Assembly: GCA_963848295.1 (NCBI GenBank)
Contig: CAWKDB010000010.1
Coordinates: 4,608,001 to 4,672,000, forward strand
Source of the DNA: an uncultured delta proteobacterium
GTDB lineage: Bacteria; Myxococcota_A; Polyangia; Haliangiales; Haliangiaceae
Length of the DNA: 64,000 nucleotides
Reading direction: 5' to 3'
Below the pieces are notes generated by a model. That model was not told the DNA's origin and ran no database searches. It worked only from the letters and a program-made list of their open reading frames with translations. Below are positions 6,057 through 38,625 of this stretch, piece after piece. The stretch's first letter is position 1. Every line of letters begins with the position of its first letter. Position numbers and translations under genes: made by a program.

Positions 6057-8021
6057 CTACGGGCAGGGGTCGGTGAGTCCGCCGGGCGCTGGGATCGTCG
6101 GCACGCCATCGCGCAAATAGCTCTCGAGGAAGCAACCATACTGGTGCTTCACGCTGTCGAGCTGGCGATAGATGTAGTGCGGATCGATGATGCCGTCGCC
6201 GTTGAACTGCACGACCGCGCGCGTGTAGCCGTCGCGGTTGCCCTTGACCGGGTACGTCATCAGACCGCTGGTGCCGTCGAGCGCGAGTGCGTCCTGCATC
6301 GTCGGCCAGACCTCGTCTCCGGCTTCGGTGTTGCCGTACGACAGTGCGGCGGCGTCGTAGACGTCCGTCGGGAAGTACGTGTCGCCCTTGCCGACCGGCT
6401 CGTAGATATGGCGGATCGGCATGCCGGGCAACGGGCGGTCGCCGAGGCGCGACATCGCCGCGACCGGCTCGGCGATCTCCCAGCCAAGCGCGATCGTGTT
6501 CATCGCCGGATGCAGGAACGTCGCGCTGTCCTCGTCGATCCCGAGCGCCGCGGTCAGCAGGTCCCTCGCGCCGGGCACGCTCGCGGTCTCGAGGATCATC
6601 AGGTTCCAGAAGCCGCCGGCGCCGGTCGGCACGAGCGCGCCGAATCGCGGCTCGATCGAGCCCACCAGGTTCGTGTACATGCCGCCCATCGATTGGCCGC
6701 CGGCCATGCGATTGCTGGCATCGAACGAGTAGCTGCCGGTCGTCGTCGAGATCCCGGTGCAGCCGGCGAGCGTCGCCGCGGGAATCTGCAGCGTCTCGAG
6801 CGCGTCGGTGAGCAGCCGTTGCTCGAACACGCCCTGCTGGAACGTGAACGGCAGCGCCGCGACGTTGTTGATGCTGAGGTACTCGTAGTCGGTCGCACCG
6901 GGGAAGCGCTCGGGGTTGAGCGGCAACGCCGAGGACACCGCGGCGATGCCGTGCAGCGCGACGACATAGCCCGGACCTTTGCCCGGCTCGGGATCGTCGC
7001 TCGAGTCGGGCGAGCGGCCGAGATCGACGAGCCCGCTCGAGAGTCCGCCGGAGCCGTGGAAGAATTGATAGAGCGGAAAGCCGTTCGCGGGCATCGCGAG
7101 CTTCGGCAGCGTGATGACGACCGGGATGGTCATCATCGTCTGCATCTGCGGCACGTCGTTGCCATCGACGACGAAGATGCCATCGCTGTTGAACGGCGGC
7201 GTCCCGGTCTGGAACTGCGGCACGGTGAGCGTGCCGTCGAGTCGGCAGAAGCCGTCGTAGGTGTCGCCGCCGGTGAGCGCGAGGTTGTCGACCGTGACGT
7301 GATACGCGGCGCGGATCGCTTCCGAGCGCTTGAACAGTCGGCCGACCTCGTCGCCGGTCGTGAACACGGTCGCGATGAGCACGTCGTCGGTTGCGATCCC
7401 GGCGGACGCGAGCGCGGGCCACAGCGGCGCATACAGCGTTGCGGCAGCGGCCCCTCGGTCGCCACTCGGCGTCTTGCCGGCGGCGAGCTCGGCGAACGCG
7501 GCGGGTTGCGTGAAGCCCGGTGCGAACGACGTGCGCAGCACGTACGCGTACGTCGTCGCGGGGCGAAGCACGATGCCAGGACGCGGCGCGATGCCGACGA
7601 GGTTCGTCGGCGTATAGCCGTCGGGTACGAGCGTCTGAGCGACGGTGGCGTACTCGGTGCCGAGCTCGGGCGAGGTCGGATCGATGTCGATCAGCACGAC
7701 GTCGCCGCCCGGTGCGATCACATCGCCGATCGCGCGATCGGGAATCGTGGCGGTGAACCGGAAGTACGCCGCGGGCATCGACGTCCAGCCCGTGTGCGCG
7801 GGGACGTTCGACAGCACGTTCTCCACGAGCGGGACGTCGCGCGCGTTGAGGAACCCGGTCATGTCCGGCGCGCCATTCGCGTCGAGCCGGAGGTCCGACG
7901 GGAACGGCAGGTCATAGAACGATTGATCGGCGAGCGGGCTGCTCAGATCGAACACCGCGGTCGATGAGGTCGAATCACCGCCGCACGAGACCACGAGCGC
8001 GACTGCGAGAATCCGTTTCAT
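6057..8021 (-). CDS. Lipoprotein alpha/beta-hydrolase (secreted lipase-like, PFPSD N-terminal domain)
   Basis: Lipobox VVSC; LPFPSDL; FFHGSGG; nucleophile GQSMGG; C-terminal DPH. Confidence 0.7.
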   Translation of the reverse strand: MKRILAVALVVSCGGDSTSSTAVFDLSSPLADQSFYDLPFPSDLRLDANGAPDMTGFLNARDVPLVENVLSNVPAHTGWTSMPAAYFRFTATIPDRAIGDVIAPGGDVVLIDIDPTSPELGTEYATVAQTLVPDGYTPTNLVGIAPRPGIVLRPATTYAYVLRTSFAPGFTQPAAFAELAAGKTPSGDRGAAAATLYAPLWPALASAGIATDDVLIATVFTTGDEVGRLFKRSEAIRAAYHVTVDNLALTGGDTYDGFCRLDGTLTVPQFQTGTPPFNSDGIFVVDGNDVPQMQTMMTIPVVITLPKLAMPANGFPLYQFFHGSGGLSSGLVDLGRSPDSSDDPEPGKGPGYVVALHGIAAVSSALPLNPERFPGATDYEYLSINNVAALPFTFQQGVFEQRLLTDALETLQIPAATLAGCTGISTTTGSYSFDASNRMAGGQSMGGMYTNLVGSIEPRFGALVPTGAGGFWNLMILETASVPGARDLLTAALGIDEDSATFLHPAMNTIALGWEIAEPVAAMSRLGDRPLPGMPIRHIYEPVGKGDTYFPTDVYDAAALSYGNTEAGDEVWPTMQDALALDGTSGLMTYPVKGNRDGYTRAVVQFNGDGIIDPHYIYRQLDSVKHQYGCFLESYLRDGVPTIPAPGGLTDPCP

Positions 8022-9398: not shown

Positions 9399-10247
9399 TC
9401 ACGGCCACGCCATCGCGACCGCGCCCGCCGCGACCAACGCGGCCCCGGCGATCTGCGGTGCGCGCGGCTTCTCGCCCATCGCTGCGGCGAGCATCGTCGC
9501 GAACAGGACCGAGGTATTGCGCGCGGTCAAAGCGAACCCCGCGCCGCTCGACGCGAGCGCCTGGATCAGCAGCAAGAACGAACCACCGCAGATCACGCCC
9601 ATCAACGCGACCCGCAGTGTACGCGTACGCAGCAACGCGATCGCGACGCGGCGGCCGGCGCGGCCGAGGCGCACGTAGTTGATCGCGGTCGCGAGCCCGA
9701 GCGCGAGCGCGAACACCGCCGACGAGCTGCCGCCCGCCTCCATCGCCGCCTTGTACGCGAGGTGATAGCCGGCGATCGCGCCCGCACAGGCGATCGTCCA
9801 GGGCAGCGCGCGCCGCGGCATCGACGCCGATCCGGACGTGCGGCCGGCCAGCGCGACACCGGCGAGCACCGCGACGCTGCCTGCGATCGCTCCGGGCGTC
9901 GCGACCTCGGAGAACCACGCGATCGACAGCGGCCAGATCACGAGGATCGCGCCGCCGCGCGACACGGTGTAGACCGGCCCGAGCGGGCCACGGTCGAGCG
10001 CGCGTGCGAGCGTGACGAAGTAGGCGAGCTCGAGCACGCCAGCCGACAGCGACCACGCGATCGACGCGGTCGTCGGCAGCGGCGGCACCCCGGTCGCGGC
10101 CCAGCGCGCCCCGGCGACGACGGCGGCGAGCACCGTCGCGACGGTCACCGCGGCGACGAGCGCGCGGTCTTTGTCGGCTTCGAGCCGGAGCAGCGCATTC
10201 CACAGCGCATGCAAGAACGCCGAGGCCAAGACCAGCGCGATGTCCAC
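9399..10247 (-). CDS. EamA/DMT family transporter
   Basis: SAFLHALWNALL, VYTVSRG and RNTSVLFA..GEK motifs; many TM helices. Confidence 0.85.
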   Translation of the reverse strand: MDIALVLASAFLHALWNALLRLEADKDRALVAAVTVATVLAAVVAGARWAATGVPPLPTTASIAWSLSAGVLELAYFVTLARALDRGPLGPVYTVSRGGAILVIWPLSIAWFSEVATPGAIAGSVAVLAGVALAGRTSGSASMPRRALPWTIACAGAIAGYHLAYKAAMEAGGSSSAVFALALGLATAINYVRLGRAGRRVAIALLRTRTLRVALMGVICGGSFLLLIQALASSGAGFALTARNTSVLFATMLAAAMGEKPRAPQIAGAALVAAGAVAMAWP

Positions 10248-10259
10248 GTCGGACCCAGC

Positions 10260-11351
10260 TTACGCGCGCCGGGCCGCGGATATTGCATCGCGCTCCGCCC
10301 AGAACGTCGCCATCGTCGGCCACACGCGCTCGGCTGCCTTGCGCGAGACGACCGCGCCGACGTGGCCGCCGCCGAGCGCGACGAGTTGCTTGTCGCGGCT
10401 CGCGACGCCGCCGAAGGTGCGGACTTGCCCCGCGCCGGCACCGGCGCCGAATGGCGGCGCGGTTCCACCGACGAGCGGCGCCGCGCTCGCGAGCGGCACG
10501 ATGTGGTCGTCGGTGAACGCGAGCGCGAGCACCGGGCACGTGATCTGTGCGAGGTCGGCTCGTCGGCCGGCGAGCGCGAAGCCGCCGCGCACGAGCGCGT
10601 TGCCGCGATACAGCTCGTCGATGTAGCGCGCGTAGCACGCGCCCGGGAACGCCACGTTGTCGTTGCCCCAGGTCTCGGTGGCGACGAAACCCTCGAGGAA
10701 CTCGTCGTCCCATGCACGATCGAGCACCGCGACCAGCTTGGAGGCGGCCAGCGTGGGCCTGAGCGCGTGAAAGCTCGCTTGCATCAACCGCCACGGCACG
10801 TTGCCGAACGCGTCGGTCAGTGCGCGGACGTCGAACGCGGCCGTGCGCGTCCACGTCGCCATGATGCCGGCGTGATCGAAATCGATCGGCGCGGCGAGCG
10901 CGACGAACGAGGCGACGTGCTCGGGGAACGCCGCGACATACGCCGCGGCGAGCGTGCCGCCGAGGCAGTAGCCGAGCACGTGGACGGGGCCCGCCGCGTA
11001 GCGCGCCGCGACTCGCACGGCGCGACCGAGGTAACGGCCGCCGATGTCATCCCAGGTCAGGAACCGATCCTCGTCGGTCGGCGTGCCCCAGTCGATGCAG
11101 AATACCTCGTGGCCGTGCGCGACGAGCCACTCGACGAACGAGCGCCCGGGCCCGAGGTCGAGCACGTACCACCGGTTGATCAGCGACGGCACGAGCACGA
11201 TCGGCGTGCGAAAGCGCCGGACGCTCGGCGAGAACCGCAGCAGCCGCCACTTGTTCTCGGTCCACACCACGGTGTGCGGTGTCGAGCCGACCGACGCCGG
11301 GCCCTTCGTCGAACGCTTCGCGAGGGCGAGGAGTGAGCGCAACGGTTTCAA
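10260..11351 (-). CDS. phaC: Class III-like PHA synthase PhaC (copy 1)
   Basis: VGSTP, PIVLVPSLINRWYVLDL, IDWG, GYCLGG (Cys), DDHIVP (Asp), GGHVG (His). Confidence 0.75.
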   Translation of the reverse strand: MKPLRSLLALAKRSTKGPASVGSTPHTVVWTENKWRLLRFSPSVRRFRTPIVLVPSLINRWYVLDLGPGRSFVEWLVAHGHEVFCIDWGTPTDEDRFLTWDDIGGRYLGRAVRVAARYAAGPVHVLGYCLGGTLAAAYVAAFPEHVASFVALAAPIDFDHAGIMATWTRTAAFDVRALTDAFGNVPWRLMQASFHALRPTLAASKLVAVLDRAWDDEFLEGFVATETWGNDNVAFPGACYARYIDELYRGNALVRGGFALAGRRADLAQITCPVLALAFTDDHIVPLASAAPLVGGTAPPFGAGAGAGQVRTFGGVASRDKQLVALGGGHVGAVVSRKAAERVWPTMATFWAERDAISAARRA

Positions 11352-11378
11352 GTCGCGGCCTCGCCGAGCCGACGAGCA

Positions 11379-13016
11379 TCACGCATAGAGCGCCTCGAAC
11401 TGGTCGCGCAGCCGCTCGTATACGATCTTGCGCCGCAGCTTGAGTGCCGCGGTCAGCGTCCCGTCTTCGACGGTGAGCGGCGCCTCGACCACGAAGTGGC
11501 GCTTGATCGTCTCGTGGCGCGCGAGCCCGCCGTTGATCGCGTCGATCCGCGCCGCGACCTGGCGCGCACGCTCCCCTTCCGGGACGTCGGCGCGACTCCA
11601 CACCGCGGCGACGAGGTAGGGCCGCGCGTCGCCGTAGACCACGACGCGCTCGATCACCGGGTCGCCTTCGAATCGCGCTTCGATGTTGACCGGTGGGATG
11701 TTCTTCCCGCCGGCGGTGACCAGGATGTCCTTCTTGCGATCGATGATCTGCAGGAACCCATCGGTCGTCCACCGGCCGATGTCGCCGGTGCGAAACCAGC
11801 CGTCGGCCGTGAACGCCGCGGCGGTCGCCTCCGGATCTTTGAAGTAACCGCCGAACACGTTCGGGCCGCGTGCGAGGATCTCACCGTCGGAGTCGAGCCT
11901 GAGCTCGAGCGATGCTAACGGCTTGCCGACGGAATCGAACCGAAACGCATCCGGCCGATTGAGGGTCAGCGTGGGCGACGTCTCGGTCAGGCCATAGCCT
12001 TCGATGATCAAGACGCCGGCGTCGTGCAGCAACTGCTTGATCTCGAGCTTCAGGCCGGCGCCGCCCGACAGGCAGAAGCGCAGTCGACCGCCGGTGACGC
12101 GGCGCAGCGCCTCCTCGCGCGCGACGCGCGAGCTCGTGGCGGCGTTCGCGCCCGGTGGCGCGAGCATCGCGCGCGCGATCTTCTCCCAGTATGCCGGGAC
12201 CGACATGAACACCTGGGGCGCCACCCCGGGCAACACGTCGAGCACGTCCGCTGGAGTCGCGAGATACGTCTCCCAGCCGAGCACGTTGCCGCAACACAGC
12301 TCGCCAAACCCGAAGATGTGGCTCATCGGCAGCCACAAGAGATCTCGGTCGCCCTCCGCGAGCAGCGGCGCGTTGCTGCGCAACCAGTCGGCTCCGTTAC
12401 TGCCGACATTGCGGTGCGTGAGCGGAACGCCTTTCGGATCGCCCGACGTGCCGCTCGTGTAGAGCATCTGCGCGGGGTGATCGAGCTCGAGTGCTCCGAG
12501 CCGGGCGTCGACCAAGGTCGGCGCGGCAGCGTCGCGATCCGACGCCGCGCGAATCGAGTCGTTGTCGTCCGCGAGCCAGGCGCAGGTCTCGAGATCGACG
12601 ACGGTCGGCGCGCGGGGCACGCAGCGTCGCGCTTGCTCGAGACGAGAGACTTGATCGGCTCCGGCCACGAACACGTAACGGATCTCGGCATGCTCGAGGA
12701 TGTAGGCCACTTGCTCGACCGTCGACGCCGGATAGATCGGCACGAACACCGCGCCCGCGGTCTGCGCGCCGAGCGCCGCACTCGCCCATGCCACCGAGTT
12801 CGGTGCAAAGATCGCGACGCGCTCGCCCGGGTCGAGCTCGCGCTCGACGAGCCAGCGCGCGACGCCGCGGATCTGTAACGCGAATTGCCCCCACGTCACC
12901 GGCCGCCATGCGCCACCATCGCGAACCTGAAACCGGGCGCGATGGCGATGAGTCGCCAGCCGATCGAACACCGCGCGCGGCGCCGGTTGGATCGTGAGCA
13001 GCGGCGTGACGTCCAT
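11379..13016 (-). CDS. Long-chain acyl-CoA synthetase (AMP-binding, FadD15-like)
   Basis: [52 protein letters not shown]. Confidence 0.9.
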
Positions 13017-13020
13017 GATG

Positions 13021-13317
13021 TTAGCTCCGCTTGCTCGTCTCGAGCCGCGCTTCGAGCTGCTCCGCCAAGTCGTAGAGCCGGCTCTCGAGCATGTTGAGCT
13101 TGTGCAGCGCGCGCTCCTGGTCGCGCCGAGTCGACAGCCCGAGCGCAGCCCACCACGCGGTCATCGCGCGATCGGTCGCCGCCTTCGTCTTCATCGCGGC
13201 GGTGAGCATCGCGCCCGCGGGGCCGAGCACCGCGGGATTGGTCATCACCTTCTCCATGTACTGCGCGGTCGCTTGTTCCCAGGCGTTGAAGCCTTGCTTC
13301 CACAGGTCCCAGATCAT
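13021..13317 (-). CDS. Small PhaE-like / granule-associated helical protein
   Basis: AGGAG SD; amphipathic helices; [23 protein letters not shown] resembles the PhaE C-terminus. Confidence 0.5.
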
Positions 13318-13368
13318 GTGCGTTCTCCTCGTTCTTCCTGTCGGTCGTTCTGTCATTCGTTTCGGTGG

Positions 13369-14177
13369 TCAGTCCTGGCCGAGCGCAAACCGCCTGAGCG
13401 TCGCCGCGGTCGTGAAGTCTGCGTTCGTCTCGTTCGGCTCGCTGTCCGCATGGGCGACCTCGCCGAAACACTCGAAGTAGAACCCGGTCGTGCGCTTGCC
13501 GATCGTCGTCGTGCCGGTCGAAGGCGCGCGCACGAGGTGGGTCCGGACGCGCAGCACCGGCGAGAAGTCGACATACGGCAACTCGAGCTCGCCAGCGCCC
13601 GAGACGTCGATCTCGAACTGATCACTCCCGACAAACGGCAGCCCGTCGATCGTCGCCGCCGCCAACGGCGCGGTCGTCGTGAACGTCTGGCCATCTTCGA
13701 TTGGAAACCGCAGCGCCGCGACCGGCTCGGCATACGCGACCAACGTCTTGCCGGCGCTCGGCATGGCCTCGTGCGACGCCGTGCCATCGAGCCACAGCGC
13801 ACTGGCATCTTGATGATAGATGCCGTCGATCCCGTCGCCAGCGTCGACCACGAATTGTCCGGCGGGAAAGCTCGCCGCATACCACTGGCCGGACAGCGCT
13901 ACGGGCCCGAGCGCGACGATCGTGTCGTCCGGCAACTGGGTCGACAGGTCCCAGACGTCGTCGGTCGCGACCAGGTCGACCGTTCTATTTTCACCTTGAT
14001 AATAGGACAGCGTCGCCCCGAGCGCGATCGGCAGCTCCTCGGCCGTGATCTCGCCATCGCGGTTCGGCACGCACGACGGCAACATCGGCACCGGCTGTGG
14101 TTGCGGGGTCTCGTTCGTCCCGCACCCTGAAGCGAGTACGAGCACGAGTAGCGAGACGGGTCGAGGTTGGTGAAGCA

Positions 14178-14178
<1 letters not shown>
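13369..14178 (-). CDS. Lipoprotein of unknown function (paralog of 16826..17728)
   Basis: Lipobox ASGC; CVPNRDGEI, PVLRV and ECFG motifs shared with the paralog; TGATG coupling. Confidence 0.75.
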
Positions 14179-16825
<2,647 letters not shown>

Positions 16826-16829
<4 letters not shown>

Positions 16830-17728
16830 GGGGCGAGCCTCTCGACTTCCGCGTCGTTCGAGAACTCGGTGCCGGACTCGAAGCTCTGCGACGTCACGGT
16901 CGCGACCGGTCCGAAGCATTCCGCGACCCACGCGAAGGTCTTGTTCGTCAGCAACGTCGCGACGCCTTCGGTGCGTTCGAGTGTCGTCGCGACGCGGAGC
17001 ACCGGGAACGCTCCGTACGGCGTGGTCATCGTGCCGACTTGGTCGACGCTCGAGTCGTATTCCTCGCTGTAGCCGGTGATCACGCCGTCGGCATAACCGG
17101 TGACGGTCGAAGTCGAGGTCCAGGTGTCGCCCGCTTTGAACGGGACCGCGAGGATCTTCGCCGGCGGGTCATAGGCCAGCTCGGTCTTCGTGCCGCCGCC
17201 GGTCGGCGACACGACGCCCAGCAAGGTCACGCCACTCGCGTTGACCTCGAACACGCCGAGCAGAGTCGACGAGGACGACAGCGGCGTCGCGTAGGTCGCC
17301 GCGGTGAAGTCCGCGGCCCACCACGCTCCGGTGGGCGAGGCGAGCGCGACGGTCGAGTCCGCGTCGCTCGAGAGCTGCCCGGACAAGTCCCACGTGCGCG
17401 AGCCGTCGCCGTTCGCGGTGCCCGCGGTGCTCCACGTCGCGTTCGTCGCGATCCGGAACTTCGCGCTCTGGCCGGCCGCGAGCGGGAGCTCGGAGCCGTC
17501 GATCGAGCCGTCGTGATTCGGCGTGCACACCCCAGTCGCGCCATCGCTGCCAGAGCCGTCGTTCGCGACGCCCGCGTCGAGGTCGGTCGGGCTGCACGTG
17601 TGGTCAGCGCGGCAAAACTTCGATGCACAATCGGCATCGACCGAGCAGGTCTCGCCGCCGCCGTTGCCGCAGCCCAGCATCAGTATGCTGCAATGCAGCG
17701 CAAAGATCGAAATCGGGCTGCGTGGCAT
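16826..17728 (-). CDS. Lipoprotein with Cys-rich N-terminus (paralog of 13369..14178)
   Basis: Lipobox MLGC; CSVDADCASKFC; CTPNHDGSI, PVLRV, ECFG. Confidence 0.75.
17686..17697 (-). promoter_or_regulatory. PhaR-type box within the start of the lipoprotein gene
   Basis: TGCATTGCAGCA on the minus strand fits TGCRNYGCASMA. Confidence 0.5.
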
Positions 17729-17736
17729 CGGCGGGC

Positions 17737-17826
17737 ACGCTACGACCCCGGTAACACGGCTGTCAAGTCGGTTTTTGCGCTGCAACAAAAAACGGTCTTG
17801 CAGTGCGGCAACCGGCCCCGTAAGGT
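17737..17826. promoter_or_regulatory. Divergent sigma70-like promoters with PhaR-type boxes
   Basis: Minus: TTGACA(17766-61)-N18-TAGCGT. Plus: TTGCAG(17798)-N17-TAAGGT. Boxes TGCGCTGCAACA (17776-87) and TGCAGTGCGGCA (17799-810). Confidence 0.6.
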
Positions 17827-17833
17827 GCCCGCG

Positions 17834-18433
17834 GTGGCGGTCCTGATCAAGAAGTACGGCAACCGCCGGCTCTACGACACCGGGGAGAGTCGCTACGTCA
17901 CGCTCGAGGAGCTCGCGACGAAGATCCGGAGCGGCGCGGATCTGCGCGTCGTCGATGCACAGAACGGCGAAGATCTGACGCAGGCCACGCTCACCCAGAT
18001 CGTGCTCGAGACCGGGAACGCCGCGAAATTCTTACCGGTGCAGCTGCTCACGCAGATGATCCGGCTATCCGACGATTCGCTCGCCGAGTTCTTCAGCCGC
18101 TATGTGACCGGTGCGCTCGATCTCTACTTGCAGGCGAAGCGCGGCGTGCAGACGCTCGCCTCGTACAACCCGTTGACGCAGATTCCGATGGCGGCGACCG
18201 ACGCGTTGACCCGGATGTGGATGGGCGGTCCGTTCGGAGGCGGCTATCAACAACCATACGCCGGCGGCTACGCTGCGCCGCCGCCTCCCGAGCCGATGCC
18301 GGTGGTCGCGACGCAACCATCGCCCGAGCCGGAGCGGGTGACCGAAGTCGCTGCGATGCGGCGCGAGCTCGACGAGCTCAAGCAAGCGATTCGCGAAGGC
18401 CTTCGGCCGAAACCTCGGAAGAAGAAAGCATAG
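17834..18433 (+). CDS. phaR: PHA synthesis regulator PhaR
   Basis: IKKYGNRRLYDT.ESRYVTL..VVDAQNGEDLT..TLTQIVLE signature. Confidence 0.9.
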   Translation: MAVLIKKYGNRRLYDTGESRYVTLEELATKIRSGADLRVVDAQNGEDLTQATLTQIVLETGNAAKFLPVQLLTQMIRLSDDSLAEFFSRYVTGALDLYLQAKRGVQTLASYNPLTQIPMAATDALTRMWMGGPFGGGYQQPYAGGYAAPPPPEPMPVVATQPSPEPERVTEVAAMRRELDELKQAIREGLRPKPRKKKA

Positions 18434-19679
18434 CCACCTCGGGCTTGGGTACGAGTCGCTTGCGCAGCGCGAGCACCGCGCCGGACATCCCCACAAGACC
18501 GGCGCCGACGACGATCTCGATCGTCGTTGCGAGCGAGAGCCCGGTCGCACGCGCGAGCGCCGGGACCAGGGTCGGTACGAACGCGGCGAGCAGCGCGCCA
18601 ACGTGATAGACGATGCCGATCGCGCGGGCGCGCACCGGCTCGGCGAACAAGCTCGTCGTCAACATCGGGGTCACGCCCGAATAGCCGACGCCGAGCGCGC
18701 CGCCGAGGAATGCCCCGAGCGTCGCAACGTGCGGCCACGCGCCGACGAACAGCGGCAGCGCCGGCACCATCAGCAACGCCGGCGTGACGAGCGCGGCGAT
18801 CATCCCGAACCGATTTGCGATCCAGCCCGCGGCGACCACCCCGACGAGCATGCCGACGTTGAAGTAGATGAGGCCGCTCCAGCCGATGGCCGCGGCGCCT
18901 GCGAGACACCGCCCATCCGACGTGGCGCATCCTGCTCGCTCGACCTGCATGCCGATGTACGAAGTCGTCATCCCGTAGTAGACGACAAACCCGAGCGCCA
19001 TCACGAGCGAGCCGAGCACGAGCATCGTTCGGACTTGTGGCACCGCGAGATCGCCGAGCGCACCACGCGACTTCTCTCGCGGTCTTGCGCGCGCGCCGTC
19101 GTCGGGAACGAGCATGCGGATCGGCAGCACCGCGAGCGCCGGCACCGCCGCGATCAAGAACATCGCGCGCCAGCCGTACGCGGGGACGATCCACGACGCG
19201 AGCGCGGCCGCGAGCAAGAAGCCGATCGGCCAACCTGCCTGCAGCAGCCCCGACGCGAAGCCTCGGCAGCGCGGCGGCAAGCTCTCCATCGCGAGCGCGG
19301 TGCCTGCGGTCCACTCCGCGCCCATGCCGAATCCGAACAGCGTGCGCAGCACGAGCAGCCACGCGAATGACGGCGCGAAGTAGATCGCAGCGTCGAACGC
19401 CGCGAACCACAGCAGTGACAACATCAGTGGCAGGCGCCGCCCCCAGCGATCCGCGATCCAACCAGCGATCACTCCGCCCGCGAGGCGGACGATCAACGTC
19501 AGCGTGAGCGAACCGGCGACCGCAGTCGTCGACACGCCGAACTCCTTGCTCACGCTCGTGGTGACACAGATGAAGATCGTGAAGTCGAACGCGTCGAGCA
19601 CCCAGCCGACCCACGCGGCTGCAAACGCTGCCCATTGAGCGCGCGTAGGCTCGCGCCACCATCGTGCGGTTCCATCCAT
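18378..19679 (-). CDS. MFS transporter, JEN1/NanT-like carboxylate:H+ symporter
   Basis: WVGWVLDAFDFTIF, ADRWGRR, GFGMGAEW, RGFASGLLQAGW; 3' end overlaps phaR. Confidence 0.8.
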   Translation of the reverse strand: MDGTARWWREPTRAQWAAFAAAWVGWVLDAFDFTIFICVTTSVSKEFGVSTTAVAGSLTLTLIVRLAGGVIAGWIADRWGRRLPLMLSLLWFAAFDAAIYFAPSFAWLLVLRTLFGFGMGAEWTAGTALAMESLPPRCRGFASGLLQAGWPIGFLLAAALASWIVPAYGWRAMFLIAAVPALAVLPIRMLVPDDGARARPREKSRGALGDLAVPQVRTMLVLGSLVMALGFVVYYGMTTSYIGMQVERAGCATSDGRCLAGAAAIGWSGLIYFNVGMLVGVVAAGWIANRFGMIAALVTPALLMVPALPLFVGAWPHVATLGAFLGGALGVGYSGVTPMLTTSLFAEPVRARAIGIVYHVGALLAAFVPTLVPALARATGLSLATTIEIVVGAGLVGMSGAVLALRKRLVPKPEVAMLSSSEVSAEGLRESLA

Positions 19680-19773
19680 GGGCGATCGGTATCGAAGGTG
19701 ATGATGCGACGCAATACAAAAATTGTTCACGTCACATAACATGCTAGTATAACAGGTATAATACCTAACATAA

Positions 19774-19826
19774 ATGCTGCGATGCAGCATCAACGCCTTG
19801 ACGTTCGCGATCACAGTCCTTAGGGT
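19774..19826 (+). promoter_or_regulatory. Palindromic PhaR-type operator plus sigma70 promoter of the phasin-phaC operon
   Basis: ATGCTGC-GAT-GCAGCAT (19774-90); TTGACG(19798)-N17-TAGGGT; AT-rich intergenic region. Confidence 0.65.
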
Positions 19827-19858
19827 GGCAGCACAACCGACTGACAAGGACTCTCACT

Positions 19859-20161
19859 ATGACGACTCAGAAGACCGAAACCGAAGCGAAGACCGACTCG
19901 AAGACCGCGGCGTTCGATCCGACCGCCGCGTGGGCCGCCTCCCAGCAGGCGTTCCACGAGATGATGACCGAGGCGTTCGAGCGTGCTCAGGCGCTGTCGG
20001 GCGAGTACGTCGCGCTGGAGGCGCAGATGATCGCGAAGGCGCGCGAAGCGATCGCGCACTGGGCGCAGCTCGCGCAAGACGCGATCACCTATAGCTCCCA
20101 GTTGGCGGCGCAGGCACGCAAGGTCGGCGCCGATGCGGCGCGCAAGATGGGCGTCGCCTGA
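19859..20161 (+). CDS. Phasin-like small helical protein
   Basis: AAGGA SD; 100-aa Ala-rich amphipathic protein; PhaR box upstream and phaC immediately downstream. Confidence 0.55.
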   Translation: MTTQKTETEAKTDSKTAAFDPTAAWAASQQAFHEMMTEAFERAQALSGEYVALEAQMIAKAREAIAHWAQLAQDAITYSSQLAAQARKVGADAARKMGVA

Positions 20162-21211
20162 ATGACCGAGGCGCTGCTCGGCTGGCCACGCGCGATGTCG
20201 GATGCATGGACCGACGTCGCGCTCGCGACCCTCGGCATCACGGCGCCGGCGCACGCACTGATGCCGACGCCGCGCGACGAGCTCGCGCTCCACGGCGGAT
20301 CGAAGCTCTATCACTTTCAACCGGCCGGGCCGGGCATCCCGCTGTTGCTCGTGCCGTCGCTGATCAATCGCTGGTACGTGCTCGATCTGCGAGCCGGCGC
20401 CAGCCTCGTCGAGGCGCTGGTCGGCGCCGGGTTCGACGTGTGGTGTCTCGACTGGGGCGTGCCCGAAGCCGAAGACCGCTATCTCGATTGGGAAGCGGTA
20501 CTAGAGCGGCTAGGGCGCGCGACCCGGCGGGTTCGGCGCGAGACCGGCGCGGCGCAGCTCGGTCTACTCGGCTACTGCATGGGGGGAACGCTCACCGCGA
20601 TCCACGCCGCACAGCATCCGAGCGAGCTCGCCGCGCTGGTCACGCTCGCGGCGCCGATCGACTTCGCGCGCGGTGGCATGCTGCGGGCGATGGTCGATCC
20701 GAGCTGGTTCGATCCCGCCGCGGTCGCCGATGCGGGCAACGTCGCGCCGTCGCAGATGCAAGCCGGCTTCGTCGCGTTGCGACCGACGCTGGATCTCGCC
20801 AAGCTCGTCTCGCAACCCGAGCTCGCGATCGATCCGGCGAGTCGCGCGAGCTTCGCGGCGCTCGACGCCTGGGCGAGCGATCAGATTCCGTTTCCCGGCG
20901 ACGCGTATCGCCGCTACATCCGCGATCTCTACCAACGCAACGAGCTCGTCGCCGGCAGCCATCGCGTCGGTGGCAAGCCCGTCGAGCTGTCGGCGATCGC
21001 GTGCCCGGTGCTCGCGATCACCGCGTCACGCGACGCGATCTGCCCTCCGCCAGCGGCTACCGCGTTGCTCGACCTCGTGGGCTCGACCGACACGGCGACG
21101 CTCGAGGTCGCGGGCGGTCACGTCGGTGCGGTGGTTGGCAGCCGCGCAGCGCGCGAGATGTATCCGGCGCTCGTCGCCTGGCTCGGGCCGCGGCTGTTCA
21201 CGTCGCGATGA
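20162..21211 (+). CDS. phaC: Class III-like PHA synthase PhaC (copy 2)
   Basis: PLLLVPSLINRWYVLDL, LDWG, GYCMGG, RDAICP, GGHVG. Confidence 0.75.
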   Translation: MTEALLGWPRAMSDAWTDVALATLGITAPAHALMPTPRDELALHGGSKLYHFQPAGPGIPLLLVPSLINRWYVLDLRAGASLVEALVGAGFDVWCLDWGVPEAEDRYLDWEAVLERLGRATRRVRRETGAAQLGLLGYCMGGTLTAIHAAQHPSELAALVTLAAPIDFARGGMLRAMVDPSWFDPAAVADAGNVAPSQMQAGFVALRPTLDLAKLVSQPELAIDPASRASFAALDAWASDQIPFPGDAYRRYIRDLYQRNELVAGSHRVGGKPVELSAIACPVLAITASRDAICPPPAATALLDLVGSTDTATLEVAGGHVGAVVGSRAAREMYPALVAWLGPRLFTSR

Positions 21212-21839
21212 GCTCGCGCATCGTCACGAGCTCGAACCCCGCCGCGCGCAACGCACCGACGATCGTGGGGAGCGCATCGAGCGTCCACTGTTGGCCCTCG
21301 TGAAATAGCAGCACGTCGCCGCCGTTGACTGCACTGGGTGCGCACCGCGCGGCGAGGGTGCTCGCATCCTTCTCGTGGTAGTCCTCTGGGTCGATCGACC
21401 ACAGAGCGACGACGTAGCCGGCCGCGCGCAGCGAGATCAGCGACCTCGCGTCGAGCGCACCGTACGGCGGGCGAACCCACGGTCGGCTGCCGCGACCCTC
21501 GCCGAGCACGCGTTCGGTGCGGGCGCATTGTTCGAGCAGCTGGACGCGCGACAGCTTCGTGAACCGGGTGTGATCGTAGCCGTGACCGGCGATCTGGTGG
21601 CCCCGGCGGACGTACTCGCCGACGAGCTCGGGATGAGCCTCGACGTGCCTGCCGACGACGAAGAACGTCGCTGGCGCGCCGAGCTTGTCGAGGAGGTCGA
21701 GGTACTCGTGGGTCATCGCGTCCGGGCCGTCGTCGAAGGTCAGGGCGACGCGCTTCGCGCTCGTCGGGCCGCGGCGGAGCAGGCCGGGCACGTGGTCGAA
21801 CAGCGCGTTCTTGACCAGCGAGCGCAGCGACCGAGCCAC
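21198..21839 (-). CDS. Polysaccharide deacetylase (NodB/CE4)
   Basis: ALTFDDGP, ATFFVVG, GHGYDH, RPPYG, LLFHE; start uncertain (ORF extends to 21899). Confidence 0.85.
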   Translation of the reverse strand: MARSLRSLVKNALFDHVPGLLRRGPTSAKRVALTFDDGPDAMTHEYLDLLDKLGAPATFFVVGRHVEAHPELVGEYVRRGHQIAGHGYDHTRFTKLSRVQLLEQCARTERVLGEGRGSRPWVRPPYGALDARSLISLRAAGYVVALWSIDPEDYHEKDASTLAARCAPSAVNGGDVLLFHEGQQWTLDALPTIVGALRAAGFELVTMRELIAT

Positions 21840-21904: not shown

Positions 21905-22447
21905 GTGAAGGAAGCCCTCAGCTACCTGCTCGTGTTCGCGGGCCTCGGTATGACCCTGTGGGCGTACTCCGCCACCGCGGGTCGGCTGCGTTATCTCGAG
22001 GCGCGCCCGATGATCATCCATCTGCTGCGCACGAACGGCAACCAGGCCGAGCTCATGGCGCGCGGTGGCAAGACCACGTTCCTCGAAGCGGTCGCCGCCG
22101 CGATCAAGACCGCCGCGATGATGAAGACGACCGACCTCGCGATCATCGCGAGCGCGACGAAGCCTGCCTACGACGCGTCGGTCGCGCCGATCGGGATGCA
22201 CTGGAAGGCGGTGCTCAAGCGCCTGCGCACCGGCGCGGTGCTCACGCTCGGCGGCGTCGTGACGGCGATCGCCGTCGGCGCGTTCCCGCTCCTCCATATT
22301 CTCATCGCGATCACCGTGTTCTTCTTCGCGGGCTATATCGTGATCTTCAAGCTCGACGTCGACCGCTCGTTGCTGCTCGCGCGTGCGGAGGTCCTGCCCG
22401 AGGTCGAGCTCTCGTTCGCGAACGGCCGCTACATGCTGCCGCCGTAG
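21905..22447 (+). CDS. Hypothetical membrane protein (about 3 TM)
   Basis: Hydrophobic segments; TATCCT lies 8 nt before the GTG. Confidence 0.65.
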   Translation: MKEALSYLLVFAGLGMTLWAYSATAGRLRYLEARPMIIHLLRTNGNQAELMARGGKTTFLEAVAAAIKTAAMMKTTDLAIIASATKPAYDASVAPIGMHWKAVLKRLRTGAVLTLGGVVTAIAVGAFPLLHILIAITVFFFAGYIVIFKLDVDRSLLLARAEVLPEVELSFANGRYMLPP

Positions 22448-22451
22448 ACGA

Positions 22452-22781
22452 TCAGCCGCCGGTGATGACGTTCGGCGAGCCACCACCTGGCTTCATATTG
22501 CCGACGCCGCCGCAGTGGGTGTCTTGATCGCCCTCGCGATGCGCTGCGAGGTTGTTGATCATCACGGTGCTGCTGCCCGCTTGCGCGATCCACGTGTTCG
22601 GGCCGCAGCAGGCGGCGTGCGTGCCGTTGTCGCTGACGCGGACTGCCGGCTTGCCATTGACGTTCACGTCGGGTGAGCCCTTGATCGCCGGACCCTGGAC
22701 GGAGTGCGGTGCACATCCCGGGCACCCGTGAACATCCGAAGGGCAGACAGAAATGTCTCCGAGCCGAGATTGCGGCGGCAT
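22452..22781 (-). CDS. PAAR domain protein
   Basis: QSRLGD, GSPDVNVNGKPAVRVSD, GSSTVMINNLAAHREGD, GSPNVITGG; Cys/His candidates for Zn binding. Confidence 0.85.
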   Translation of the reverse strand: MPPQSRLGDISVCPSDVHGCPGCAPHSVQGPAIKGSPDVNVNGKPAVRVSDNGTHAACCGPNTWIAQAGSSTVMINNLAAHREGDQDTHCGGVGNMKPGGGSPNVITGG

Positions 22782-23608
22782 CAGGTAAATCCTCCAGGCG
22801 ACATCATCGCGGTGCCGACCGCCGGAATCGGCGTGATCGGCGTGCCTCCGGTGGCGACCGCCATGACGTTGTTCACCATCGTCGACAACTTCCAGATGTT
22901 GTAGCACTGCTCGAACGCGAAGCTGATCGACTCGAACAGCTGCGACGAGAACGGCGCGGTCGGATCCCCGTGCTGCGCGACCATCTGCATCTTCAGCACG
23001 TCGGCGCTGATCGAGACCGGCACTTGAACGAACATTCCGAACGGGGTCGGGACATTCGGCATCGGCGGCGCGACCGGCGTCGGTACGGCTGCGTACGCCG
23101 GATACCACGGCAGCGCGGCGGCCTTGACCGTCCCGGTAAACGTCAGCCACGCATTGCTGATTACGGTCGCGATCGTCGTCGTGTATTTTATCTGCATTGG
23201 CGTACTCATTGGCGCGCCGCCGGACAGGATCAGCGGGATCAAGGGCACCCCGACGATCTGACCGCCCGATACGAGCGGACCGGATACGACGAAGCCGACC
23301 ATCGTCGACGTCGACTGCCAGTCGGACCACGCCGAGCAGATCGCCGAGCAGATGTTGTCGATGAAGCCACCGAACGTCGAGATCAGCATCTTCTGGGTAT
23401 CGGTGTGGTACTTGTTCAGCGTTGCCGGGACGAACAGCGGTGGACTGCCGGGTGACGTCGCCTTCTCGTCCGCTTTGAACGCGTTGCCGTATTGCTGAGC
23501 GTCAGGATCGCCGCTCGGGTCCTGCCAGTTGGTCGGCACGCGCAGCGCGAAGCTCATGAACTTCGCCCGCGCGAGCTGCTGCATTTCGGAGGCTTGGGGC
23601 GCCGGCAT
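22781..23608 (-). CDS. Hypothetical protein translationally coupled to PAAR, with three internal repeats
   Basis: 275-aa ORF; TGATG overlap with PAAR; no signal peptide. Confidence 0.7.
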   Translation of the reverse strand: MPAPQASEMQQLARAKFMSFALRVPTNWQDPSGDPDAQQYGNAFKADEKATSPGSPPLFVPATLNKYHTDTQKMLISTFGGFIDNICSAICSAWSDWQSTSTMVGFVVSGPLVSGGQIVGVPLIPLILSGGAPMSTPMQIKYTTTIATVISNAWLTFTGTVKAAALPWYPAYAAVPTPVAPPMPNVPTPFGMFVQVPVSISADVLKMQMVAQHGDPTAPFSSQLFESISFAFEQCYNIWKLSTMVNNVMAVATGGTPITPIPAVGTAMMSPGGFT

Positions 23609-23709
23609 GGTCTAGTGGTTACGAGCTTATACGGACGAAGCCCCCTGCGTGTTCCTACTCGCAAACCCTTAAGAGGGTCGCCCGGATCCATATGATAGCC
23701 TTTGCAAAG

Positions 23710-24093
23710 ATGTCGGGATCGCCAAAGCAAAAACTCCACCCCGAGACCGGCGAGGAGTTGACCGAAGACCGCGAGGTCTACCTGCGCGATGGCCGCAAGC
23801 TGGTGGTGTCCGAGGCCGGGATCGATCAGCTAGTCGAGATCCGCAACGGTGCCGGCCTGGTCGAGATTCGCATCCAGCTCACCGAGCAGGGGCCGGTCGT
23901 CCAAGTCGAGGCCGCCCGGCTGCAGCTCAAGGCCAGTGAGGCGATCGAGATCGCCTCGCCTCATGTCGCGATCGCCGGCAGCGAGAAGCTCGAGCTCACC
24001 GGCGGCAAGGTCGGCGTCCATGCCGAAGACGACCTCGACGTCGACTCCAAAGAAGAGATCCGGATCAACGGCAAGATGATCTGGCTGAACTGA
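23710..24093 (+). CDS. Small gp5/VgrG C-terminal-like beta-strand repeat protein (mini-spike)
   Basis: Short alternating strands LQLKA-IEIAS-VAIAG-LELTG-VGVHA-LDVDS ending IRINGKMIWLN. Confidence 0.5.
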   Translation: MSGSPKQKLHPETGEELTEDREVYLRDGRKLVVSEAGIDQLVEIRNGAGLVEIRIQLTEQGPVVQVEAARLQLKASEAIEIASPHVAIAGSEKLELTGGKVGVHAEDDLDVDSKEEIRINGKMIWLN

Positions 24094-24096
24094 CGT

Positions 24097-25674
24097 CTAC
24101 CCGCGATACCGCTTGCGCAGCTCGGTCTTCTGAAACTTACCGGTCGAGGTCCGCGGGATCGCGTCGATCACCTCGAACGCGTCGGGCAGCCAGAACTTCG
24201 GGAACCGCTCGGCGAGAAAGGCCCGCATCTCCTCGGGGCTCGCCGATGCGCCCGGCTTGAACGCGACGACCGCGAGCGGCCGTTCGCTCCACTTCGCGTC
24301 GGGCACGCCGATCACCGCCGCTTCGCGGACCGCCGGATGATCCATCAGCGCCGTCTCGATCGCCGCCGAGGCGATCCATTCACCGCCGCTCTTGATCAGA
24401 TCGGCGACGCGGTCGACGAGGCGAACGAACCCGTACTGATCGACGGTCGCGACATCGCCGGTGCGAAAGTAGCCATCGCTCGTCCACCGCTCCGGCGTTT
24501 GACCACCGGTGTACTCGTCGGCGATCCACGGGCCGCGGACGAGGACTTCGCCCGAGCTCTGATCGTCGTGCGCGACGTCGCCCTGGTCGCCGACCACTCG
24601 GAGATCGAGCAGCGGAGGCGGCACACCTTGCTTCGCGCGCAGCTTGTAGCCGATCGCCTCGTCGAGTGCGGCGAGCTCGGGCGACAGCCGTGACACCAGA
24701 CCGATCGGCGAGGTCTCGGTCATCCCCCACGCATGGACGAGACGCAGGCCGAGCCGATCGAAGTCGCGGATCAACTGCTCCGGGACCGCGGCACCACCGA
24801 CGATCATCTGCACGTTCGGCAACAGATGCCATTTGCCGGGCGCGGCGTCGAGCGCTTCGCGAATACCGATCCAGATCGTCGGGACGCCGGCGGCAAACGT
24901 GACGCGCTCGCTCGCCATGAGGTCCAACAGGCTCGGTGGGTCGAGGAACGGCCCGGGGAACACGAGCTTGGCGCCGACCATCGTCGCGATGAACGGCAGG
25001 CCCCAGGCGTTGACGTGAAACATCGGCACCACGGGCAACAGCGTGTCGGCGCGGACGAGTCCGAGTTGGTCGGGCAGCGCGGCGACCAGCGTGTGCAGCA
25101 CGGTCGAGCGATGCGTGTAGACGACGCCTTTGGGATCGCCGGTCGTGCCGCTCGTGTAGCAGGTGCCGAGCGGATCGCTCTCGGCGAGCACCGGCAACGC
25201 GATGTCGTCGCGCGCGGAAGCGAGCAGCGCTTCGTAGCTCTCGTGCTCGCCGGCGTTGCCGACCACGATGATCCGCTCGAACTTCGCGCCGGCGGCGATG
25301 ACCTTCGTGAGCAACGGCAGCAGCACGTCGTCGACGATCACGATGCGGTCGCGGCCGTGGGTCGCGATGAACGCGATCTCCGGCGGCGCCAGTCGTAGAT
25401 TGAGCGTGTGGGTCACGGCGCCGGCCAGCGGGATCGCGAAGTAGGCCTCGAGGTGCTCGACGTGGTTCCACATGAGCGACGCGACGCGATCGCCCTTGCG
25501 GATCCCGCCGGCGATCAGGGCGCGCGCGAGCTTGCGGGCGCGCGTGATCATCGCGCCGTAGGTCGAGCGATGCAGGCTTCGATCGGGGCGGCGCGAGACG
25601 ATCTCGACGTCGCCGAACTGCTCGGCGCGGCGCGCGATGTGATCGATCGTGAGCCCGACATCCATCATCGTCAT
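24097..25674 (-). CDS. Medium-chain fatty acid-CoA ligase (AlkK/DmdB-like)
   Basis: YTSGTTGDPKGVVYTHRS, VPMFHVNAWG, AWGMTETSP, IKSGGEWI, TGKFQK. Confidence 0.9.
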   Translation of the reverse strand: MTMMDVGLTIDHIARRAEQFGDVEIVSRRPDRSLHRSTYGAMITRARKLARALIAGGIRKGDRVASLMWNHVEHLEAYFAIPLAGAVTHTLNLRLAPPEIAFIATHGRDRIVIVDDVLLPLLTKVIAAGAKFERIIVVGNAGEHESYEALLASARDDIALPVLAESDPLGTCYTSGTTGDPKGVVYTHRSTVLHTLVAALPDQLGLVRADTLLPVVPMFHVNAWGLPFIATMVGAKLVFPGPFLDPPSLLDLMASERVTFAAGVPTIWIGIREALDAAPGKWHLLPNVQMIVGGAAVPEQLIRDFDRLGLRLVHAWGMTETSPIGLVSRLSPELAALDEAIGYKLRAKQGVPPPLLDLRVVGDQGDVAHDDQSSGEVLVRGPWIADEYTGGQTPERWTSDGYFRTGDVATVDQYGFVRLVDRVADLIKSGGEWIASAAIETALMDHPAVREAAVIGVPDAKWSERPLAVVAFKPGASASPEEMRAFLAERFPKFWLPDAFEVIDAIPRTSTGKFQKTELRKRYRG

Positions 25675-38613: not shown

Positions 38614-38625
38614 GCCAGGACGACC

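Follow-up and report, generated by a model that had tools for sequence, protein, structure and literature searches.

Extracellular degradation of polyhydroxybutyrate (PHB) relies on a secreted depolymerase, an oligomer hydrolase, and Bdh, and Bdellovibrio uses the polyhydroxyalkanoate (PHA) of its prey. In the PHA cycle of Pseudomonas putida, a granule acyl-CoA synthetase re-activates released 3-hydroxy acids. Here, we describe an operon in a 64,000-nucleotide stretch of DNA, referred to as the window, from an uncultured member of the Haliangiaceae. The window corresponds to C10:4608001-4672000 (68% GC) of a 7.78-Mb genome that is 85% complete and carries the working label G000. The operon is real and ancient, and in it genes for divergent class III-like PHA synthesis stand together with an uncharacterised envelope module. 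This module, hereafter the envelope block, consists of a lipoprotein, an esterase, an 18-stranded barrel of the TIGR04551 family, and a second lipoprotein. Our favoured reading, which we hold about as strongly as we doubt it, is that the operon serves import of short hydroxy-acid esters, their periplasmic hydrolysis, symport of the products, CoA ligation, and storage as polyester. An earlier reading of the window from its letters alone (the sequence-only reading) proposed a PhaR-controlled locus that scavenges external polyester; this picture is broadly right, but the argument that it drew from the absence of PhaA and PhaB fails.

The locus resembles class III PhaE/PhaC systems under PhaR-phasin control in having a PhaC of ~350 amino acids with a Cys-Asp-His triad, a PhaE-like partner, PhaR, a phasin-like gene, and PhaR-type operators. 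It differs from them in that PhaE is 98 amino acids long, two PhaCs are present, a ligase and the envelope block belong to the operon, and PhaC scores under the family cut-off. Unlike canonical phaCAB operons, the window encodes neither PhaA nor PhaB; in relatives, a FabG-like short-chain dehydrogenase/reductase (SDR) of the PRK08217 type stands in the place of PhaB. Like extracellular PHB degradation and prey-PHA use by Bdellovibrio, the proposed system would draw carbon from polyester outside the cell, hydrolyse esters, and take up monomers. In contrast to those routes, the locus would couple a channel of its own, with a periplasmic esterase tethered to it, and a CoA ligase to a synthase under PhaR, and Bdh and TIGR01840 were mostly not found. 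As in the P. putida cycle, the ligase would re-activate free hydroxy acids for PhaC, but the P. putida cycle is intracellular and has no envelope module. Literature searches that covered titles and abstract openings, with subscription journals largely uncovered, returned no description of the cluster, no paper naming TIGR04551, no outer-membrane channel for hydroxy-acid esters, and no envelope uptake module inside a PhaR regulon.

The operon and its envelope block

All 11 open reading frames (ORFs) listed by the sequence-only reading are intact, and family searches support the gene content that it gave. The operon is a minus-strand run of genes whose ends overlap or nearly touch; lipoA, the fusion that follows it, and lipoB overlap via GTGA and TGATG. 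lipoA (16826..17728) encodes a predicted all-beta outer-membrane lipoprotein with the lipobox LMLGC and is a paralogue of lipoB (32%). The fusion (14178..16829; 883 amino acids) comprises an N-terminal alpha/beta-hydrolase domain (15921..16829; PF00561, 116 bits) with a lipobox Cys24 and the residues Ser131 (GHSWG), Asp254, and His282; a linker of ~90 amino acids (15645..15920) whose sequence is rich in Gly/Ser and Ala/Pro; and a TIGR04551-family outer-membrane beta-barrel (14178..15644) that ends in a C-terminal Phe. Downstream lie lipoB (13369..14178; predicted lipoprotein, lipobox LASGC), the phaE-like gene (13021..13317), an AMP-forming acyl-CoA ligase (11379..13016; PF00501 and PF23562, with FadD11 as best NCBIfam match, under its cut-off), phaC1 (10260..11351; Cys129-Asp282-His330), and a gene for an EamA-like membrane protein (9399..10247; TIGR03340, 74 bits). 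Divergent from the operon on the plus strand is phaR (17834..18433), followed by a minus-strand gene for a sialate:H+/JEN1-like symporter of the major facilitator superfamily (MFS; 18378..19679) in what is a variable transporter slot, and by two plus-strand genes, a phasin-like ORF of 100 amino acids (19859..20161) and phaC2 (20162..21211; Cys139-Asp291-His320; 42% to PhaC1). The same gene order was found again in dozens of genomes, so the arrangement is not due to chance.

The barrel domain scores 305.8 bits against TIGR04551, a family of uncharacterised Myxococcales proteins, and thereby passes the cut-off of 300. Its AlphaFold model has 18 strands and a predicted local distance difference test score of 94.6. 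In a wide structure search, the model matched the Campylobacter jejuni protein MOMP (Z 24.6, root-mean-square deviation (RMSD) 4.2, 347 residues aligned), AlgE (23.4, 4.9, 353), OccD2 (22.7, 3.8, 326), OpdQ and OccAB4 (both Z 22.4), and chitoporin (20.4). The 18-stranded fold is thus common to the AlgE/EpsX export barrels, the OccD/OccK/OccAB uptake channels, and MOMP (Z 21-25), but identity to these proteins is 9-13%, and a barrel profile run against PDB sequences gave no match under E 0.1. Because MOMP, AlgE, and the Occ uptake channels are nearly tied, the fold gives no direction of transport. Strand alternation was used to estimate which side chains face inward: among 64 sequences, 16 conserved Arg/Lys and 12 acidic positions do so (the basic count omits one further output row, His70 in the numbering of the window protein), with mean inward K+R of 20.7 and D+E of 16.5. 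As modelled, the pore is polar and charge-lined, unlike a hydrophobic FadL-type channel. PHA-linked barrels form one clade (local support 100) in a midpoint-rooted FastTree tree of 78 rows that we selected; they are shorter than generic family members and often fused to an esterase. The two other TIGR04551 proteins of G000 fall outside this clade and are a tandem pair of full-length barrels of 602 and 623 amino acids (L008:7582-11421; L-numbers denote fetched locus stretches and G-numbers genomes of the phylum sample).

Most relatives encode the hydrolase and the barrel in two genes, and 14 loci of this family have them as a single fusion; these 14 loci, together with an independent fused protein of 898 amino acids, rule out an artefact. 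The Ser-Asp-His triad of the hydrolase is invariant in all 67 aligned sequences, and the lipobox Cys is present. Its best PDB match is 6i8w, and its closest solved relatives are generic hydrolases. It falls under the cut-offs of hidden Markov models (HMMs) for PHA depolymerases and 3-hydroxybutyrate-oligomer hydrolases (NF050089, 74.5 versus 300; TIGR02240, 53 versus 251). The termini of outer-membrane barrels face the periplasm, as stated in PMC9601211. Because the esterase is fused to the barrel's N terminus, it is predicted to be periplasmic and would cut its substrate after passage through the pore rather than polymer outside the cell, which departs from the proposal that external esters are hydrolysed at the outer membrane.

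The predicted structure of LipoA is all-beta with a mean model score of 89.7 on the same scale as the barrel. Its best fold match is 4fvs, an uncharacterised Parabacteroides lipoprotein (Z 10.4, RMSD 4.2, 171 residues aligned), followed by YmcC (2in5; Z 7.6) and weak LolA-like matches (Z ~5-6), all of them middling. Neither LipoA nor LipoB matched a known family in Pfam and NCBIfam scans. Some loci contain three tandem lipoprotein copies, and LipoA has named close homologues in Kofleriaceae and Myxococcales. The region encoding the LipoA signal peptide harbors a perfect GCTGCA-N-TGCAGC palindrome (17687-17699), similar to sites in relatives, which may account for the conserved residues LHCSI/LQCSM. 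lipoA lacks an obvious ribosome-binding site, and a possible -10 element immediately precedes its ATG; its mRNA is possibly leaderless.

PhaC1 and PhaC2 are alpha/beta-hydrolases that retain the Cys-Asp-His triad in 58 of 58 and 39 of 39 orthologues, respectively; none of 251 phylum genomes reaches the cut-off of the class III family TIGR01836 (365 bits). Judged from these sequence features, they are a divergent clade of class III-like PHA synthases and predicted polymerases. The PhaE-like protein resembles the C-terminal part of class III PhaE, matching only that part of PF09712 (E 7.5e-4, under the cut-off; TIGR01834, E 9e-4). Its gene is present in 59 of 68 loci that contain the envelope block and is fused to PhaC-like genes in some distant loci. 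The phasin-like ORF matches no Pfam or NCBIfam family and takes its label from its size, its position, and the PhaR-type site upstream. The ligase forms a dedicated clade related to fatty-acid CoA ligases in a quick tree with flagged long branches; in 11 distant loci, PRK06187/PRK06839-like ligases from elsewhere in the tree take its place. The best family of the MFS protein is TIGR00891 (197 bits versus a cut-off of 553). No transmembrane segment was predicted in PhaC1, PhaC2, the PhaE-like protein, or the ligase.

Several unusual synthase genes were observed in this survey. PhaC-like genes with long N-terminal helical extensions, possibly PhaE::PhaC fusions, stand beside the block in L062, L083, L085, L086, and L087, and near them a second divergent Cys-type enzyme (GxCQGG) lies behind PhaR-type sites. 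One relative encodes a PhaC-like::acyl-CoA ligase fusion of ~1050 amino acids (L050:4607-7765). Matches of this size recur in many relatives, and a similar, apparently fragmented region is present in G000 (C10 ~3513.5-3516.5 kb).

Conservation, probable PhaR control, and monomer supply

PhaC1 matches were found in 60 of 81 genomes of the order, a tally that includes weaker paralogues and two unpublished genomes (G059, G067). Forty stretches were fetched from these matches, 34 of them around clear PhaC1 orthologues, and 29 of these 34 carry lipoA-hydrolase-barrel-lipoB in place. The block lies on another contig in L061 and L094; L017, L018, and L026 lack all four genes at the locus, though phaR-phaE-phaC is kept. 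phaC1 in L053 and the block in L042 at first seemed to be lost, but these absences were artefacts of gene calling and contig placement. In the converse search, a lipoprotein profile had matches in 59 of the 251 genomes of the phylum sample. Forty of these were fetched by the lipoprotein alone; 38 contain the full block, all 38 with a PhaC-like gene in the stretch, and the other two a single lipoprotein gene. A TIGR01836 match was found in 102 genomes, which include all 59 block-positive ones, and the block occurs in none of the 149 PhaC-negative genomes. The block depends on PhaC; this is a pattern rather than a statistic, since related genomes are not independent.

Gene tallies over the 68 block loci used profiles built from those loci and thresholds of our own. 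They agree with the expectation that the envelope genes are conserved with phaC and phaR: a PhaC-like gene is present at 68 of 68 loci, PhaR at 62, and a phasin-like gene before phaC2 at 47. A ligase of either clade was found at 64 loci; three of the misses lie at contig ends, and one is real (L066). An SDR directly follows phaC2 at 31 loci; a separate count over relatives gave 14 loci with this order. EamA (6 of 68) and the window-type MFS (8 of 68), both of which had been counted as parts of the system, are variable passengers. EamA was also considered as a core exporter and rejected as a lineage-specific passenger. A transporter from one of four groups (three of MFS type, one sodium:solute) is present at 32 loci; several of these loci (L028, L029, L062, L069, L071, L088, L090) have it within the operon itself.

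PhaR has both DNA- and PHB-binding domains by family match: it scores 87 bits against PF07879 (cut-off 25) and 95 against TIGR01848 (cut-off 109), with a weak match to PF05233. A palindromic operator matrix was derived solely from 50 upstream regions of phasin-like genes outside G000. It has the consensus TTGTTGCAATGCAACAA and fits the Sinorhizobium meliloti PhaR motif WNWD2NYGCRNYGCRNH2WNW, which PMC12542648 reports as demonstrated by electrophoretic mobility shift assay. The best-scoring site in the whole G000 genome (27.0 bits) is the predicted operator between lipoA and phaR (17772..17788, no strand), and only 10 sites in the genome reach at least 16 bits. A second predicted operator (19774..19790, no strand; 18.5 bits) lies between the MFS gene and the phasin-like gene. 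Each operator site in the window lies 5-7 bp upstream of a TTGACA/TTGACG hexamer; for the first, the distance is 5 bp to a TTGACA at 17766-17761 on the minus strand. A simple scan for sigma-70 promoters and terminators gave nothing above shuffled sequences.

Sites of at least 16 bits occur upstream of lipoA (43/62), phaR (53/62), MFS genes (14/17), and sodium:solute symporter genes (3/7), compared with ligases (0/57) and phaC1 (0/69), which lie inside the operon, and unlabelled neighbours (26/607); divergent genes share sites in these tallies, and phasin counts would be circular. In rearranged operons the site stands at the first gene, as in four ligase-first loci (L062, L082, L085, L086) and four in which lipoA is apart from phaR (L060, L078, L079, L081). 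Because the site moves with the first gene of the operon away from phaR, it does not merely reflect phaR autoregulation. Some block loci, such as L072 and L077, have no PhaR-type site. The PhaR control proposed from the gene neighbourhood is thus backed by a de novo motif, and on sequence grounds the operon is likely PhaR-regulated. G000 encodes a second protein with a PhaR-like N-terminal domain (C10:4295465-4296061; 43% over 83 amino acids), unlinked to PHA genes.

The sequence-only reading had remarked on the lack of thiolase, acetoacetyl-CoA reductase, and PhaJ. Genome-wide family searches placed no thiolase, acetoacetyl-CoA reductase, or MaoC/PhaJ match in the window, so the remark is accurate there; it does not extend to the genome, in which five thiolase matches over cut-off lie outside the window. 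No G000 protein exceeds the 302 bits of the PhaB family TIGR01829, and the two best matches sit in fatty-acid-synthesis clusters. The FabG-like SDR that follows phaC2 in relatives has PRK08217 as its best family (283 bits versus 298; TIGR01829, 154-156), and G000 has a copy, 85% identical, located 2.3 Mb from the locus and without a PhaR-type site. This SDR is found in 74 of the 81 order genomes, in a tally that again includes G059 and G067. It is present in PhaC-less genomes as well and is therefore viewed as a recruited housekeeping reductase, which may fill the role of PhaB. MFE-2-type enzymes yield (R)-3-hydroxyacyl-CoA. G000 encodes an MFE-2-like protein (SDR, hydratase 2, and SCP2) beside an SCPx-type thiolase; the region (L004:6906-11745; G000 C10 ~4312.9-4317.7 kb) contains a peroxisomal-type MFE-2 with three SCP2 domains, the thiolase, and a TetR gene and is a candidate source of (R)-3-hydroxyacyl-CoA. 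The absence of PhaAB is local, and with thiolases, an MFE-2-like enzyme, and an SDR in the genome, it is not in itself an argument for scavenging; the conclusion that monomers must come from outside was rejected.

Direction and substrate of the proposed transport

Import in some form is, in our judgement, quite probable. In the favoured reading, oligomers or esters of 3- or 4-hydroxy acids would cross the polar, Arg/Asp-lined pore, with LipoA and LipoB as possible capture or relay partners of the barrel. The esterase tethered at the barrel's periplasmic N terminus would free the acids, and a proton or sodium symporter, here perhaps the JEN1-like MFS protein, would take them in. The ligase would then form acyl-CoA directly, bypassing 3-hydroxybutyrate dehydrogenase, an enzyme rare in the phylum sample. 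PhaE with PhaC1 and PhaC2 would polymerise the acyl-CoA, and new granules would titrate PhaR and thereby raise uptake. De novo monomer is probably also made through the unlinked FabG-like SDR and the MFE-2-like enzyme, so import would be a supplement and not the sole route. The recruitment of ligases from two separate clades implies that free acid must be activated. The favoured reading also leans on the dependence of the block on PhaC, the four recruited transporter groups, the polar pore, the operator that moves with the operon, and the scarcity of Bdh, for which 4 of 251 genomes gave a match when ten candidates were scored in each, and G000 gave none over cut-off.

Further evidence comes from natural variants. 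4-hydroxybutyryl-CoA dehydratase converts 4-hydroxybutyryl-CoA to crotonyl-CoA. In G013, genes for TetR, a long PhaC-like protein, a JEN1-like MFS protein, a ligase, 4-hydroxybutyryl-CoA dehydratase, LipoA, the hydrolase, the barrel, and LipoB follow one another (L034:1-10393), and G017 has the same order across a contig break (L035:8528-13962 with L092:1-5437). The dehydratase scores 560 bits to 1u8v and keeps the CFQRCVG motif. In the PhaC-like protein, the GYCxGG motif reads GYSMGG, which puts Ser at the catalytic Cys, and no PhaR-type site was found at this variant operon. From its gene content, the variant is apparently a candidate catabolic uptake operon that employs the same block for a short hydroxy acid or its esters (4-hydroxybutyrate, its lactone, or an oligomer), an arrangement suggesting that a short hydroxy acid flows inward and is catabolised. 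The dehydratase was also considered as a general partner and rejected, being linked to the block only in these two genomes and elsewhere unlinked or absent.

Modules analogous to the block are found in the PHA operons of three of eight inspected PhaC loci, chosen by us, from block-negative genomes (L095:6101-17601, L097:7643-17919, and L098:7867-18205), which is counted in favour of the same reading. They contain a ligase, a small secreted protein, a barrel-like protein of 520-560 amino acids, and exported hydrolases; two of the three also have a secreted lipase-family protein of 605-620 amino acids. The barrel-like protein of L095 showed no significant alignment to the TIGR04551 alignment, and the Atlas look-alike cluster of its L098 counterpart is 17% PF13372. 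In two other block-negative loci (L099, L100), PhaC has a ligase as its neighbour, and one of these loci also has a sodium:solute symporter.

Several observations weigh against this reading. The top Foldseek match of the barrel is an exporter, AlgE (E 7.6e-16), and no PHA depolymerase is among the top 60 PDB relatives of the hydrolase. PhaC1 and PhaC2 (231 and 239 bits) both fall under the class III cut-off, and the best family matches of the ligase are fatty-acid CoA ligases. A recognised transporter is missing from the fetched stretch of 36 of the 68 block loci. The dehydratase variant represents one event in two near-identical sister genomes. In L066 (6237-15793), which has the block without a ligase, a thiolase directly follows the SDR as in a phaB-phaA pair. 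Prey PHA, which had been offered as the source, fares poorly: the secreted PHB-depolymerase family TIGR01840, whose HMM misses other depolymerase types, had matches in 6 of the 59 genomes with the block and in 7 of the 192 without it, and an external oligomer source is consequently not evident for most genomes. G000 has a secreted TIGR01840 esterase (C8:13867-15012; 218 bits) with a hydrophobic/Arg-rich C-terminal tail, no evident substrate-binding domain, and no PhaR-type site.

It is tempting to speculate, and we do so tentatively, that the operon is a phylum-wide polyester utilisation locus of Myxococcota in which a channel, capture lipoproteins, and a tethered esterase harvest hydroxy-acid oligomers from PHA of prey or necromass, and the acids are repolymerised in the predator's granules via a new hydroxyacyl-CoA ligase, a design built at least twice with unrelated barrels. 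The favoured reading, if right, would assign a first function to a branch of TIGR04551 and to two unnamed lipoproteins, define a new hydroxyacyl-CoA ligase clade, reveal how predators abundant in soil and sea can shift prey storage carbon into their own reserves, and supply testable parts (channel, oligomer esterase, ligase, and synthase) for bioplastic upcycling.

A different substrate would be fatty-acyl esters such as prey lysolipids or acylglycerols, from which the esterase would free fatty acids for activation by the ligase; beta-oxidation and an SDR or MFE-2-like hydratase would then provide (R)-3-hydroxyacyl-CoA to PhaEC. This we consider rather unlikely, although it accounts for the fatty-acid type of the ligase, the SDR after phaC2 and MaoC proteins that flank three distant loci, the lipoprotein fold, an open beta-sheet with its LolA-like resemblances, and the lipase-family protein of the analogous modules. 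PMC7460792 describes accumulation of PHA by Bradymonas during predation, and PHA build-up in preying Bradymonadales is proposed there to draw on fatty-acid beta-oxidation; 'phaC' is absent from that paper's main text. The conserved charges of the pore argue against a fatty-acyl substrate, as does a separate FadL gene in the window (38626-39870), and the recruited solute symporters and the 4-hydroxybutyryl-CoA dehydratase variant suit short hydrophilic acids better. Even under this explanation, about one quarter of the sampled Myxococcota genomes would carry an undescribed operon that links uptake to storage.

Synthase-dependent export systems combine a barrel, a periplasmic hydrolase, a lipoprotein, and a synthase. 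By analogy, PhaC1/PhaE could make a polyester or oligoester that the lipoproteins hand on to an AlgE-like barrel and that the hydrolase trims, a scheme that draws on the AlgE match, the two PhaC genes, and the 18-stranded AlgE-like barrels that export polysaccharide in Myxococcus xanthus according to PMC9601211. The locus has the 16-18-stranded outer-membrane barrel of alginate-, cellulose-, and poly-N-acetylglucosamine-type systems; unlike them, it shows no membrane-spanning synthase, tetratricopeptide repeat (TPR) scaffold, or outer-membrane polysaccharide export partner. The family scan found no TPR protein among the core genes, and a scan of flanking genes revealed no recurrent ABC exporter, flippase, or TPR scaffold. 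No transmembrane segment is predicted in PhaC1, PhaE, or the ligase, uptake channels tie with AlgE in fold, and the block persists beside a Ser-type PhaC and a catabolic dehydratase. Import, already preferred to export in the sequence-only reading, remains the more likely direction because the operon that holds the G013/G017 block is apparently catabolic and there is no conserved polymer exporter; export strikes us as improbable.

We would give similarly little credence to self-recycling, in which the module recaptures or finishes degrading PHA products of the cell or its siblings and stored polymer would be mobilised by way of the ligase. The operon probably answers to a regulator that senses granules, and the route of mobilisation in the 85%-complete G000 is unaccounted for, as there is no match to the intracellular depolymerase TIGR01849 or to PF10605 (which no control genome matched either) and no Bdh match over cut-off. 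Against this, granules are cytoplasmic whereas the esterase is an exported lipoprotein, internal turnover needs no outer-membrane channel, and L017, L018, and L026 keep phaR-phaE-phaC with none of the block genes at the locus. Explanations other than the favoured reading and these three alternatives are very improbable.

Other genes of the window

Several neighbours of the operon were recorded. Downstream of phaC2, a polysaccharide deacetylase (21198-21839) and a second acyl-CoA ligase (24097-25674; PRK06187 over cut-off) recur beside the locus in its own genus only. Between them, a small PAAR-motif protein amid unannotated ORFs (21905-24093) resembles a fragment of a contractile-injection or type VI secretion accessory cluster. 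On the other side, a predicted lipoprotein of 654 amino acids (6057-8021) with a GQSMGG hydrolase-type motif and no Pfam match is found near the locus in four relatives. Farther away, a predicted lipoprotein of 756 amino acids without a Pfam family is followed by the FadL-family channel (together 36343-39870), making a separate candidate pair for lipid uptake.

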